Below are positions 28,434 to 57,959 of a stretch of 64,000 nucleotides of DNA, in pieces (within the stretch, counting starts at the first letter, position 1; the number at the start of each line of letters is the position of its first letter). The notes under the pieces were generated by a model. The model saw nothing but the letters and a program-made list of their open reading frames with translations. It was not told the DNA's origin and made no database searches. The stretch lies in assembly GCF_041886205.1 (NCBI RefSeq), contig NZ_CP169029.1; one strand, given 5' to 3'. The stretch is from Escherichia coli. GTDB lineage: Bacteria > Pseudomonadota > Gammaproteobacteria > Enterobacterales > Enterobacteriaceae. The position numbers were made by a program, and so were the translations under genes.

Positions 28434-28442
28434 AAGAAATAG

Positions 28443-28475
28443 GGCTTCCACCTGGGAAGCCCTTTCTTTTTATAG
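28443..28475. terminator. Intrinsic terminator after qor
   Basis: agggcttccc-acct-gggaagccct followed by ttctttttat. Confidence 0.7.
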
Positions 28476-42162: not shown

Positions 42163-42218
42163 GGCGTCACCTCAAATAAAAACCGCGTGTAAACGCGGTT
42201 TTTTATTAGGTAATAAAA

Positions 42219-48556: not shown

Positions 48557-48921
48557 AGTGGTATAAGGCGATAAGGAGCAACCAACCAGTTAAAGCTCAT
48601 TGGCAACTCCATTTTCTCAACGTCTGTAACCGTTGAGCGGTTTTCGTAGAAATGGCTGACAAGTAGCAGGAGCGCCAGCTTCACATCATCAGATATCACA
48701 AGCCCATCAGGATCATCCGCAGGCCTGTCATCTGCGGTTGCATACAACGTACGGTTAAGGAAGTTTTCCGTCCGACTCTGAGCGGCCTTCCCAAGTAGTT
48801 CAAGCAACTCATCTTCATCAGAGAAATCATCATCCAGACGAAGCTGAAGCTTAATCTCTTCCATTTTTAACAGCATAAAACCTCCTGTGCCCGCCAGAAC
48901 GCGGGCACAAAAAAACCGCAT
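48553..48921 (-). CDS. Head-tail connector (gp6-like) protein
   Basis: About 105-122 aa acidic protein just downstream of major capsid gene. Confidence 0.5.
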   Translation of the reverse strand: MRFFCARVLAGTGGFMLLKMEEIKLQLRLDDDFSDEDELLELLGKAAQSRTENFLNRTLYATADDRPADDPDGLVISDDVKLALLLLVSHFYENRSTVTDVEKMELPMSFNWLVAPYRLIPL

Positions 48922-53897: not shown

Positions 53898-54397
53898 GAC
53901 TCGATGATTTTCAGAAACGGGTTAGTGGCTTTCTTCTGCCCCGCCAGGCCAATCAGACGCTGGCGGCTGCTGGGGTCGAGTCCGAGCATTGCCCCCGTGC
54001 TGCTCATCTCGGACTCCTGTTCTTTCTTGGCGGTCAGCTCCGGGTTTTTGACCCTGCCGCCCATTGCACCGGTAATGGTGTTGCCCTGGCTGGCAATATT
54101 TTTCACGGCACGTCGCCAGAACTCATAGGCCACGCACCACCGCTCAAGCACCGCGAGGTCAGTCACGCACAGCAGGCCCTGACCGCAGAGTTCTTTGGTT
54201 GTCAGTTGCCACATGATCGTGGCGAGAGGGAGATCTTCTTCAGCGAACCATTCCGGTGGCTCAACACCTTTGATGGGCGTAAAAACAGGTTCATCTTTAT
54301 TCAGGGCTCGCTTGCCGGGGTTTCCGGCCAGCGCCTTGCGCGCCGTTGGCTTGGGGCGACGCCCGGAACGCCCCGCCGTTCCAGCCATATGCGGCAC
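53894..54397 (-). CDS. Terminase small subunit (P27-like)
   Basis: 167-aa basic ORF directly upstream of and overlapping large subunit. Confidence 0.7.
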
Positions 54398-54514
54398 TCC
54401 TGGTTAAATTTCATTTTTCGCGGGTATAAAAAAACGATGGGGCGGGCAGTCCGGAAGACGTCAGGTCACAGGGATTTGACCCGCCCCTCCCTCACAGACA
54501 GTTGAGAATTATTA

Positions 54515-54865
54515 TCACTTTAACCGTTCACGGGCCGTCTTCGCCTTATGGCAGGGCCAGCACAGACTCTGCAGATTACTGTCGGCATCAGTGCCGCCAT
54601 GCGCTTTAGGGATGATGTGGTCAACGGTTTTCGCCTCGCGCACCACACCAGCACGCAAACACAACTGACACAGGCCTTTGTCACGCTTCAGTACTCGCAC
54701 CCGGATACCGTCCCACTTCGAACCATAACCACGCTGATGGCGGGACTGGCCCGACTTGTATTGCTTCCAGCCCTCGCTTTTGTGGCTTTCGCAGTAGCCT
54801 GACGGGTCAGTCGTGGTATTGCGGCAGCCGCGAACACGGCAGGCTTTTGGGATTCGAGGAGGCAT
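54515..54865 (-). CDS. HNH endonuclease (packaging-associated)
   Basis: 116 aa with zinc-finger cysteines and HNH core (VDHIIPKAHGGTDADSNLQSLCWPCH); immediately upstream of terminase genes. Confidence 0.85.
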   Translation of the reverse strand: MPPRIPKACRVRGCRNTTTDPSGYCESHKSEGWKQYKSGQSRHQRGYGSKWDGIRVRVLKRDKGLCQLCLRAGVVREAKTVDHIIPKAHGGTDADSNLQSLCWPCHKAKTARERLK

Positions 54866-54891
54866 AAATATATTCCTGTTCTTTGTCCAGA

Positions 54892-55164
54892 CTATTTGCC
54901 TGCTGCCAGCAAAGCGTTACGGCGCATCTCGATACTTCGAATTCCCGCTTTGTCAATATTGCATTGTCCCAACGCTGACAACAGACTCACATTCAACTCC
55001 AGACTGGCACCATACGTCAGCGGATTGGGTATAAACGGTACAGGAGTATCAGAAGTCAGGCTGGCTGGCAGTGGTGCCACCGGAACGCTCACGTAAACCG
55101 TTCGCGAATTTCCGCAACCGGTCAGCAGCGGCAGCAGGCACAGGACGTGAAGCACAATCATCAT
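54892..55164 (-). CDS. Outer-membrane spanin lipoprotein (Rz1-like), embedded out of frame in Rz
   Basis: Frame starting MMIVLHVLCLLPLLTGC with lipobox LTGC; Pro-rich mature part; overlaps i-spanin gene. Confidence 0.6.
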   Translation of the reverse strand: MMIVLHVLCLLPLLTGCGNSRTVYVSVPVAPLPASLTSDTPVPFIPNPLTYGASLELNVSLLSALGQCNIDKAGIRSIEMRRNALLAAGK

Positions 55165-55441
55165 CCGCAACAGCCACTTTGATATCTTCCTGGGTTCTCT
55201 GTGACTCCAGTGCGATCTGCTGTTTTGCATGTTGATTCGCCTCCTGAATGATGTTCGTTATTGCCATAGTACGCAGAACATTCGCGGTGATAGCCTCAGT
55301 AGAATCAGCTCGCTGTTCCGCAGCGTCAGCACGCTTCTGTTCCTTCAGAAACTTTCCGTGGTAGTGATTAGCTGACCAGACAAGACCACCAGCAATACAA
55401 GCAATAAACGTTAAAATGAGCGCCCAATAACTCATCTTCAT
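55049..55441 (-). CDS. Inner-membrane spanin (Rz-like)
   Basis: 130 aa, N-terminal TM helix then coiled-coil periplasmic domain; follows endolysin. Confidence 0.7.
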   Translation of the reverse strand: MKMSYWALILTFIACIAGGLVWSANHYHGKFLKEQKRADAAEQRADSTEAITANVLRTMAITNIIQEANQHAKQQIALESQRTQEDIKVAVADDDCASRPVPAAAADRLRKFANGLRERSGGTTASQPDF

Positions 55442-56052
55442 ACCAGCAGCGCCGCCCGCGCCTTGTTGTATCGAACCTTACGATCCTCAATACCGTTCAG
55501 ACCGCCGTTAATGATGCGCGTAACACGATTAATATCAGCACCGTAGACCATGCAGCCTTTAGAGGTGTAGAACCATGCAGCTGAGCGCGCGGCCTGTAGC
55601 TCCTGCTCCAGTTGTTCAGGTGAGGTCACCAGATCTAACTTCAGCGCCGCGCCACAGATGCGATAATTATGAAGGCCAGTGATTTGAATTAATCCTCTAC
55701 CACGATATTTCCAGCCATCACCGGGTGCTTTGTTACCCAGTCGGTTGCTATACACCAGATTGGCAATAGCATCCTGACGAGCTGCATGTCCGGATGTTCT
55801 GCCAAGGGCATCAGCCTGCTGCTGTGTGATCCTCTTTCCGAACGTCGCCACCAGCGCAGATGGTGTGTAGTTAAAATTTTCAACTACGGCGCTAAACCCC
55901 ATCGACTCATGGCCTACCTGAGCGATAAACATTGCCTGATCCGCTGGTGCTGTAATGCCGAATTCCTTCATCGCCGCATCAATGTGCGGAAACCAGCGCG
56001 CAGCCAGCCCGGCGCTAATACCAGCCGCCTTTTGAAATAATTGTTGGTTCAT
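55438..56052 (-). CDS. Endolysin (GH19 chitinase-like lysozyme)
   Basis: 204 aa; motifs FIAQVGHESMGF and KYRGRGLIQITG; lysis cassette context. Confidence 0.75.
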   Translation of the reverse strand: MNQQLFQKAAGISAGLAARWFPHIDAAMKEFGITAPADQAMFIAQVGHESMGFSAVVENFNYTPSALVATFGKRITQQQADALGRTSGHAARQDAIANLVYSNRLGNKAPGDGWKYRGRGLIQITGLHNYRICGAALKLDLVTSPEQLEQELQAARSAAWFYTSKGCMVYGADINRVTRIINGGLNGIEDRKVRYNKARAALLV

Positions 56053-56333
56053 TAGTGCCTCAGATGATCAACCAGACGTGCAACGTTGCCTCTGACGGCC
56101 ACCAGCACGGAAAGAAAAATAGTGTTCGCCACGATAATGGGCCATGAGGAATGAGGATAAATCCCACAGAGATAGGCCAACGGAACAGCACTGTATGTAA
56201 CAGTAATCAGCCAGGCTAAACGTGAAACCCAAGGACGATGCCGCGAATCACCACGACGATAAAACATCAGAGTAATAACAACACAAGCACATAACAGCGC
56301 ATTTATAGTTGCTGTCGGGTCATTTAGCTCCAC
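56052..56333 (-). CDS. Small membrane protein (holin/antiholin candidate)
   Basis: 93 aa, 2-3 predicted TM helices, between holin-like gene and endolysin. Confidence 0.5.
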   Translation of the reverse strand: MELNDPTATINALLCACVVITLMFYRRGDSRHRPWVSRLAWLITVTYSAVPLAYLCGIYPHSSWPIIVANTIFLSVLVAVRGNVARLVDHLRH

Positions 56334-56706
56334 CTGAACCTCCCCGGCGCGTTATGAGCGCCACCAGCGAGCCGATATCCTGATTATTCAGGAACGTCAG
56401 GATCTTAACGGCTAAAGCAGAGACGATTACGGCACCAATAGCATCCAGAGGTTTATCACTGTATCCGGTCAAGTTCGCCAGCTTGGAGCCAACCAACCCA
56501 GAGCAAAGAATCCCGGCAATATATGACACGATAAAATATGCCAGTCGGCGCGATGCACTCAGATCTGCTGCTGTTGCTATGTAGAATACAGCCCCTGCAA
56601 ATGCGCCAAATACAACGCCGTAATCAGTTCCGGTCAGCAGTCCATAAACACTGGCACCCGTCAGGGCACCACCAGCCAGCCCAGTACCGGAAATCGGATC
56701 GGACAT
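56320..56706 (-). CDS. Holin-like membrane protein
   Basis: 128 aa Gly/Ala-rich with 3 hydrophobic helices; first gene of lysis cassette. Confidence 0.55.
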   Translation of the reverse strand: MSDPISGTGLAGGALTGASVYGLLTGTDYGVVFGAFAGAVFYIATAADLSASRRLAYFIVSYIAGILCSGLVGSKLANLTGYSDKPLDAIGAVIVSALAVKILTFLNNQDIGSLVALITRRGGSGGAK

Positions 56707-56785
56707 TTAGCCCCCTCTTAATTGCTGTTGGTCCTCTCAGATATGAGGGGAAGGGATCTTAATGACAGTCTGTTTATTATTTCAG

Positions 56786-57043
56786 TCAAATACTACCCTG
56801 TTGATGATTTCTCAGAAGCGAACTTGACTCCCAGGGGAAACTCAACTTTCCGTTAAAACCACCAGCAGACATTCGTTCAATTTCCACAGAAATATCACTG
56901 AGCCGTTCTTCAAGCTCTGCTTTTTCTTTTACCAGACGGTTATAGCGGCTTAGATGAAGCTTTTGCTGCTCCAGCCAGTCTTCAAGCTGTTCAACAGTCA
57001 TACCAGGGTTAAAAAAATATGGCTGCTGCTTTTCGCCCTGCAT
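56786..57043 (-). CDS. Hypothetical first late-operon protein
   Basis: ORF downstream of the late terminator; start placed at Met-24 (57043) because the terminator hairpin lies within the first 23 codons of the ORF-track frame. Confidence 0.35.
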   Translation of the reverse strand: MQGEKQQPYFFNPGMTVEQLEDWLEQQKLHLSRYNRLVKEKAELEERLSDISVEIERMSAGGFNGKLSFPWESSSLLRNHQQGSI

Positions 57044-57061
57044 TATTGACCTCCAGAAAAG

Positions 57062-57100
57062 CAAAAACCCCGCCGAAGCGAGGTTTGTTATGATTTCGTT
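57062..57100 (-). terminator. Intrinsic terminator downstream of Q (tR'-like)
   Basis: Reverse strand reads cctcgc-ttcg-gcgggg followed by tttttgcttttc; analogous to lambda tR' read through by Q. Confidence 0.6.
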
Positions 57101-57193
57101 AACGGCAGACATACAAAGCCCATCGTTAGGAGAATCCTAACCATATTTTTTGAAAAATGCAAGCATCATGTCGCCATCTTCGGCGAAAATCAT

Positions 57194-57946
57194 TTATCTT
57201 GTCACTTTTCTCAATTGTGTCTCTGCATATGCTTCTTCCTGCCAGCACTTTGTAACCAGTTTATCAATGACATCTGCATATCCTTTGTACCACTGATAAT
57301 CCGTCAGGTCTGGTACCAGCTTCTGGACATGATGCCGCGCCAGTGTGGTTGGTAAACGGCTAAACCGGTTTCCATTGCAACGCCCACAAATCTTATAAAC
57401 AGGCGTGCCATGAAGCCGGGTCCTTTTTTCATCCAGGACAATACCTTTACCCTTACACCCTCTGCACGCTGTGCTGACTTCTCCCTTACCATGACAATGC
57501 TGACATAGTTCCTTCACCCACTCTTCCTTGATAACAGATTCCCCGCTTCTGGAGTGTTTCACCACTTCGCGCAATACATTATGAAATCCAGTACCAGCAC
57601 AATGCTCACAGCGAGCCTTACTTGCCGCAGACCTGGAATAATCAGCAAAGGCAAAATTCACAAGGTAAGGAATAATCTGTAGCCGGGTTTCTTCACTCAA
57701 TTTATTCAATGTCGGGCTATCCAGTGCCATCGCGTAATTGAGCAGACCTTCAATCGCAAACTGAGGATCCTGAACACCAACTTTTGCCAGGAATAAGGCA
57801 AACCCAAGCGGTGCTTTCGACTGCACCATCCCCTGCGCAGCCATCACATCCGTAATTGTTAAACCACCAGAGCCTGTCGCCGGTGCGTCATCGCTCAATT
57901 TTGGAGATTTTGGGGAGTAATATTTCGGTAAGGCTTCAAGGTTCAT
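57194..57946 (-). CDS. Late-gene antiterminator Q-like protein
   Basis: 250 aa with zinc-finger cysteines (CEHCAGTG ... CQHCHGKG ... CRGCKGKG ... CGRCNG); upstream of lysis genes. Confidence 0.7.
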   Translation of the reverse strand: MNLEALPKYYSPKSPKLSDDAPATGSGGLTITDVMAAQGMVQSKAPLGFALFLAKVGVQDPQFAIEGLLNYAMALDSPTLNKLSEETRLQIIPYLVNFAFADYSRSAASKARCEHCAGTGFHNVLREVVKHSRSGESVIKEEWVKELCQHCHGKGEVSTACRGCKGKGIVLDEKRTRLHGTPVYKICGRCNGNRFSRLPTTLARHHVQKLVPDLTDYQWYKGYADVIDKLVTKCWQEEAYAETQLRKVTR

Positions 57947-57959
57947 GCTCGTTCTCCAC

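Follow-up and report, generated by a model that had tools for sequence, protein, structure and literature searches.

What controls the genes that follow a Q antiterminator gene in an Escherichia coli prophage, and where does the first of these genes begin? The locus considered here lies in a stretch of E. coli DNA of 64,000 nucleotides, which we call the window and to which all coordinates refer. An earlier note on this DNA had drawn attention to positions 57041-57193, which prove to be the exact interval from Q to the Met-24 codon of the next open reading frame, with the feature itself on the minus strand. A Q-dependent late cassette consists, in this order, of the Q gene, the promoter PR', a pause element, a terminator and the late genes (PMC9388147). 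We conclude with high confidence that the site is the regulatory core of such a cassette, of the lambda type, in an SfV-like prophage at dusA. The cassette is of the textbook kind, and its cUUCGg terminator is a variant of it.

The genes annotated around the site are all on the minus strand. ETEC H10407 has a prophage at dusA that matches the query 57260-56780 with 100% identity, as do several further E. coli genomes; for phage SKA5 the identity is 99.8%. Downstream of Q, the minus strand carries the open reading frame of 85 or 108 aa discussed below, two holin genes, a GH19 endolysin gene and an Rz1-like gene, and further downstream the terminase, portal, capsid and contractile-tail genes. 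Lysis and morphogenesis genes are thus found on the Q strand and downstream of it, as they are in a late cassette. Collinearity with ETEC H10407 also points to two regulator genes that are possible virulence-regulatory cargo. One, of the GrlR family, separates the lysis cassette from the terminase at ~54482-54802 (minus strand); the other, of the PerC family, belongs to the early region past ~60500.

The assignment of Q itself is clear from profile and structure searches. The protein matches Pfam PF03589 with an E-value of 1.9e-53, the lambda Q structures 7UBM and 4MO1 in the PDB with an E-value of 3.9e-38, and the profile phrog_127. PF03589 is the Q-lambda family, one among three unrelated Q families (PMC9388147), and here its gene lies immediately 5' of the transcription unit that it would regulate, the arrangement of a lambda-type cassette. 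The window Q is 250 aa long compared to 207 aa for lambda Q, with ~40 extra residues separating the two halves of the zinc ribbon. Between residues ~110 and 200 it contains four CxxCxGxG-like motifs, twice the number in lambda Q, and its match to DnaJ_CXXCXGXG is sub-threshold (30.9 bits, against a cut-off of 32.7). Four such motifs are also present in K-12 YdfT/QuuQ, SfV Q and others. The zinc-ribbon arm of Q contacts the Q-binding element (QBE) and sigma region 4. Because the ~40-aa insertion lies in this DNA-contacting arm, the details of Q loading may differ from those in lambda; with its CxxCxGxG module doubled, the window Q might hold two zinc ions and leave a different DNA footprint.

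Table 1. Coordinates of the features of the late regulatory region in the window, with the evidence for each or its counterpart in lambda.
Feature	Position	Strand	Evidence or comparison
Q antiterminator gene, 250 aa	57194..57946	-	PF03589; 7UBM/4MO1; phrog_127
Predicted PR' -35 hexamer, TTGCAT	57162-57157	-	lambda TTGACT, in register; most related loci conserve it
17-nt spacer, TTTTCAAAAAATATGGT, expected position of the QBE	57156-57140	-	11/17 identical to the lambda spacer
Predicted PR' -10 hexamer, TAGGAT	57139-57134	-	lambda TAAATT; relatives TAAGAT or TAAAAT
6-nt gap from -10 to pause element	57133-57128	-	lambda also 6 nt
AACGAT+GGG, predicted start, pause element and discriminator	57127-57119	-	9/9 identical to lambda
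Possible 5'-terminal hairpin of the PR' transcript (+1 to +27)	57127-57101	-	pairing kept across variants
Intrinsic terminator hairpin of tR' type, 9 bp, C(UUCG)G (+42 to +63)	57086-57065	-	scan, folding, conservation
Remainder of the U-tract, UUGCUUUUCU	57064..57055	-	directly after the hairpin
Shine-Dalgarno sequence GGAGG	57054-57050	-	6-nt spacing to ATG 57043
First late gene, 85 aa, phrog_3501	57043..56786	-	start is Met-24 of the 108-codon open reading frame

Where, then, would late transcription start? The earlier note had expected the late promoter and the qut site in the interval between Q and the hairpin, and alignment to lambda supports this expectation at the level of sequence. The 107 nt from the Q stop codon (TAA, 57196-57194) to the hairpin align to lambda PR' without gaps, with 31 of 52 positions identical from -35 to +17 and every element in register (Table 1). 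AACGATGGG is identical to lambda +1 to +9 and is spaced equally from the -10 and -35 hexamers; the lambda copy of AACGAT begins at lambda coordinate 44587. In lambda, AACGAT is a sigma70-dependent -10-like pause element, the discriminator GGG occupies +7 to +9, and pausing takes place at +16/+17 (PMC5001585). The pause motif is invariant among the aligned Q-lambda-type relatives. This part of a lambda-type cassette, too, is found here as sequence. The lambda QBE is located in the spacer of the PR' promoter. By this register, we infer that transcription would start at 57127 (+1), that polymerase would pause near 57112-57111, and that Q would bind its spacer element and bring about Q-dependent read-through.

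The hexamers are weaker than those of lambda PR', matching the consensus at 3/6 and 4/6 positions (7/12 in total), and a generic promoter scan of 55500-59000 did not report PR'; what speaks for the promoter is thus homology and conservation, not consensus strength. A further difference is that lambda has a -35-like TTGACT just 5' of the pause element, which is not conserved in the window (TTCTCC). For the homologous promoter of the K-12 prophage Qin, the Cappable-seq and SMRT-Cappable-seq supplements list no transcription start site where one would be expected, in either genome version, and a literature search returned no experiment on the very sequence of the window. We also noticed a perfect 7-bp inverted repeat, GTTAGGA-TTC-TCCTAAC (57141-57125), which spans the -10 hexamer and the start and was flagged as terminator-like on the plus strand. 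We rejected an operator reading of this repeat, given that relatives have GATAAGATTTTCCCAAC at the same place, with no dyad symmetry. The repeat is specific to this promoter variant and is probably fortuitous.

The hairpin stands where the earlier note had put it, between Q and the first late gene, inside the interval from the Q stop codon to ATG 57043-57041. On the minus strand it reads AAACCUCGC-UUCG-GCGGGGUUU and is followed by UUGCUUUUCU; the loop is UUCG with a C-G closing pair, the classic cUUCGg tetraloop, in agreement with the UUCG-type loop that the note had named. Its stem has 9 pairs, of which 5 are G-C, and no other terminator-like site in 55500-59000 is as strong. Folded alone, its 38 nt give a dG of -13.1 kcal/mol compared to -5.1 +/- 1.9 kcal/mol in shuffles. 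When both strands of the entire 64-kb window were scanned more strictly, 19 terminator-like sites came up, 13 of them at -12 kcal/mol or below, while block-shuffled sequence gave about 4 and 0.4, respectively, which places this hairpin in a small non-random set. Read on the plus strand, the hairpin lacks a U-run; the terminator would therefore act on minus-strand transcripts only, and we ruled out a bidirectional terminator for the same reason. In its position, this intrinsic terminator separates the pause site from the late genes.

The scan also brought up other very strong terminator-like hairpins at 48881-48914 (minus strand), 13724-13754, 28441-28463 and 42178-42203 (both strands), with dG values of -13.5 to -22.7 kcal/mol; three of these four are bidirectional. 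The one at 48914-48881 lies inside the late operon, and Q-modified polymerase would have to read through it.

That the hairpin is a late-operon terminator, as the earlier note had claimed, draws support from three sides: its place on the minus strand 3' of the PR'-like promoter and pause element and 5' of the lysis and structural genes, the related loci, and the K-12 homologue. We gathered related loci with the same pause element by scans of viral contigs and took as our conservation sample the 121 loci that carry AACGATGGGCTTTGTATG. A clean single-hairpin intrinsic terminator begins between +31 and +77 in 112 of them (93%), with stems that fall into at least 8 families. These families are unrelated to each other: the position of the terminator is conserved and its sequence is free. 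The stem type of the window is the commonest single class (18 loci), with related variants whose loops are UCCG, UACG or CUAU. At the equivalent site of SfV, the GenBank record annotates a 'putative rho-independent terminator'. A separate observation concerns loci L014, L031 and L065 (and L026 and L064), which have a degenerate terminator ~+25 to +60 after AACGAT, exemplified by GAACCCGCCATCAAGTAGGT, in which the 3' arm is mutated and dG is about -3 to -5 kcal/mol; such loci may be decayed prophages or may have leaky late expression.

BLAST comparisons locate a mosaic junction within the leader, between 57101 and 57086. On its 5' side, from the Q 3' end through the promoter and leader, the DNA is 88-96% identical to SfV, mEp460 and Stx2c phages and 82-84% identical to 2H10 and Tritos; this side is also common to Qin-type phages. 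On its 3' side, the terminator and the 85-aa gene are instead shared with Salmonella ST64B (80%) and Klebsiella prophages (73-76%). The terminator behaves as part of the downstream module. Qin (ydfT/quuQ), SfV, mEp460, 2H10, Tritos and the Stx2c phages likewise encode a Q of 250 aa, and loci of this Qin/SfV type have a short-leader terminator at an equal distance. They differ from the window in the stem, which is GAACCCGC-NNNNNN-GCGGGTTT compared to AAACCTCGC-TTCG-GCGGGGTTT in the window, and in the genes downstream.

The K-12 prophage Qin provides evidence from RNA. Downstream of ydfT (quuQ) it has the same cassette, TTGCAT-17-TAAAAT-6-AACGATGGG, with the terminator GAAAACCCGC-UGAUGA-GCGGGUUUU. 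Term-seq mapped a 3' end at 1642356 on the minus strand in all three growth conditions, with two average read counts shown, 103,591 and 55,368; in the table, this end is listed simply as 'orphan' and linked to no gene (Adams et al. 2021, PMC7815308, Supplementary file 1). The position is 8 nt past the last stem G of the Qin terminator, and the orphan end can be matched to the tR'-type terminator of the Qin Q cassette (our locus L181). This mapped end indicates that the homologous Qin terminator is active in vivo and that the short RNA it produces is abundant. In principle, the end could also belong to read-through from 5' of Q. A literature search for quuQ found nothing relevant. By analogy with the Qin 3' end, from which we derived the release point, RNA release in the window is expected at ~57061-57060, giving a terminated RNA of about 67-68 nt.

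Taken in sequence, these elements suggest the following mechanism. A sigma70 promoter directly 3' of Q would initiate constitutively at about 57127; sigma70 would then re-bind the -10-like AACGAT with its GGG discriminator, and polymerase would pause at about +16/+17. When Q is absent, polymerase would resume and terminate between +42 and about +68, at the cUUCGg hairpin with its U-tract. The ~67-68-nt RNA would be released, and the 85-aa gene would stay silent along with the genes for the two holins, the endolysin, the terminase, the head and the tail. Once made, Q would bind its site in the promoter spacer and load onto the paused complex with NusA. Since the Q-modified polymerase would be terminator-resistant, the late operon of ~22 kb would be read, with its first gene beginning at ATG 57043, 11 nt past the U-tract (57055).

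This arrangement resembles the Q/PR'/6S/tR' region of lambda in its PF03589 Q and in the order of Q, promoter, pause element, terminator and late genes. The main differences lie in distance. The lambda terminator is at +194, whereas that of the window spans about +42 to +68; because the terminator comes earlier, the terminated RNA would be ~68 nt long rather than 194 nt. The first late gene of lambda lies ~400 nt downstream, compared to 11 nt after the U-tract in the window.

Would the short RNA do anything once it is released? One alternative, which adds to the terminator role and leaves it intact, is that the ~67-68-nt RNA from PR' to the terminator is a constitutive trans-acting regulator in lysogens. 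A precedent exists in StxS of the Stx1 and Stx2a phages, whose authors generalise to lambda, 21, phi80, 82 and P22 (PMC7547250). Like the RNA predicted here, StxS is a constitutive short lysogen transcript running from an antiterminated late promoter to tR'. The two differ in several respects: the StxS phages have another Q, and the 258-nt StxS is cut to 74 nt by RNase E and has no sequence similarity to the predicted RNA of the window. Hfq binding and targets have been demonstrated for StxS. A function has also long been suspected for lambda 6S RNA, the 3' end of the homologous K-12 RNA is abundant in three conditions, and the intrinsic terminator with its long U-tract resembles, in general form, the 3' end of an Hfq-binding sRNA. 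However, no Rfam family matches at threshold, and the 3' half of the RNA, including the terminator, is freely swapped among relatives, which argues against a conserved seed there. At a permissive threshold, Rfam gave only sub-threshold matches to istR and rsmX in 54000-60000, at about 25 bits. We rejected membership in either family: the gathering scores are 45 and 56, and the matches are carried by the terminator hairpin alone.

The leader is strongly conserved from +1 to +28, and it can form a hairpin with the pairs AACG.UGGGC / GUCUG.CGUU, in which the RNA of the pause element (+1 to +10) pairs with +18 to +27. The hairpin is weak in the variant found in the window (dG -6.4 kcal/mol, z -1.4) and stronger in its sister variants and lambda (z -2.2 to -3.3). 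Across 27 distinct leader variants, 97% of cells are paired; six of the nine pairs vary, always in the 3' arm and always in a pair-preserving way, and the unpaired column 23 carries all four bases. The same 5' arm can also pair in lambda 6S RNA and in a third, divergent leader, where its partners are other downstream sequences. Because the 5' arm is the invariant pause element, true double-sided covariation is impossible and the shuffle control is uninformative. We regard a conserved 5' hairpin of the PR' transcript as suggested but not proven, and the conservation of +1 to +28 is equally explained by constraints of pausing and Q loading on the DNA. A role for the RNA itself, be it as an StxS-like regulator or through a 5' hairpin that stabilises the late mRNA or aids pause escape, seems rather doubtful to us, and we rate trans-acting regulation in lysogens as similarly unlikely.

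Compared to a regulatory RNA, the remaining alternatives would change the reading of the hairpin as the terminator of the late cassette. The first is that the hairpin merely ends the early, Q-containing transcript and that the late promoter lies elsewhere. Its position 108 nt 3' of the Q stop codon would indeed let it stop unmodified read-through. Against this reading, the PR'-homologous promoter with its identical pause element lies between Q and the hairpin, the U-tract (to 57055) and the Shine-Dalgarno sequence (57054) are too close together for another promoter to fit, and the next genes are late lysis genes on the same strand. We consider it very improbable.

A second question is whether the hairpin lies in coding sequence, since the mechanically called open reading frame of 108 codons (57112..56786) has its codons 9-16 covered by it. 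The earlier note had put the probable start of the gene at Met-24, and our comparisons support this. The GGAGG before Met-24 begins 3 nt after the last U of the final U-run of the U-tract (57057) and lies 6 nt 5' of the ATG, while ATG 57112, at +16 of the predicted transcript, has no Shine-Dalgarno sequence. In the ETEC H10407 prophage, which is 100% identical, RefSeq gives the gene its 85-aa form, and PHROG 3501, which has 85 positions, matches residues 1-84 with an E-value of 1.3e-54; a Pfam search with the 85-aa protein gave no match. In a three-way alignment of the window, ST64B and a Klebsiella phage, the conserved protein starts with M-Q-(x)-QQPYFFNPGM, 3' of the terminator. Upstream of Met-24, the three extensions are unrelated save for shared terminator nucleotides, so that the likeness there is one of terminator and not of protein, and the differences among them (UUCG or CUUU in the loop; the spacer from U-tract to ATG) spare the stem and change the would-be amino acids. 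Met-24 is well supported by the GGAGG, the RefSeq form, PHROG 3501 and the non-conserved upstream extension. The frame is open from ATG 57112, and older annotations of ST64B (Sb50) and a Klebsiella phage also call extended open reading frames; yet, given the evidence above, a real 108-codon gene with an incidental hairpin inside it is most improbable, and the 23 upstream codons would be an artefact of an open frame that runs through the terminator. The phrog_3501 gene is conserved in E. coli, Salmonella and Klebsiella prophages, and in every case it follows the late terminator and precedes the holin gene.

Finally, a chance hairpin without function deserves almost no credence: although shuffles in the scan contain 3.2 G+C hairpins with a T-rich 3' side per 3.5 kb, this one has a z of -4.29 with 0/200 shuffles as good, a terminator sits at the equivalent position in 93% of related loci despite sequence turnover, and a 3' end is mapped at the K-12 homologue.

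The reading of the site as the core of a lambda-type late cassette is of value mainly for annotation. The first late gene is now assigned its start at 57043, with a product of 85 aa and not 108, and positions can be given to the late promoter, the pause element and the terminator in a family of prophages. This family occurs in about one fifth of the complete E. coli genomes searched, Stx2c phages included, and in the Stx2c phages the same Q-PR' module drives toxin expression. Within the family, the terminator is a swappable module whose distance from the pause site is fixed. Were the short RNA functional, the idea behind StxS would extend to the Q-lambda family and to Qin of K-12, where the RNA is already visible in Term-seq.
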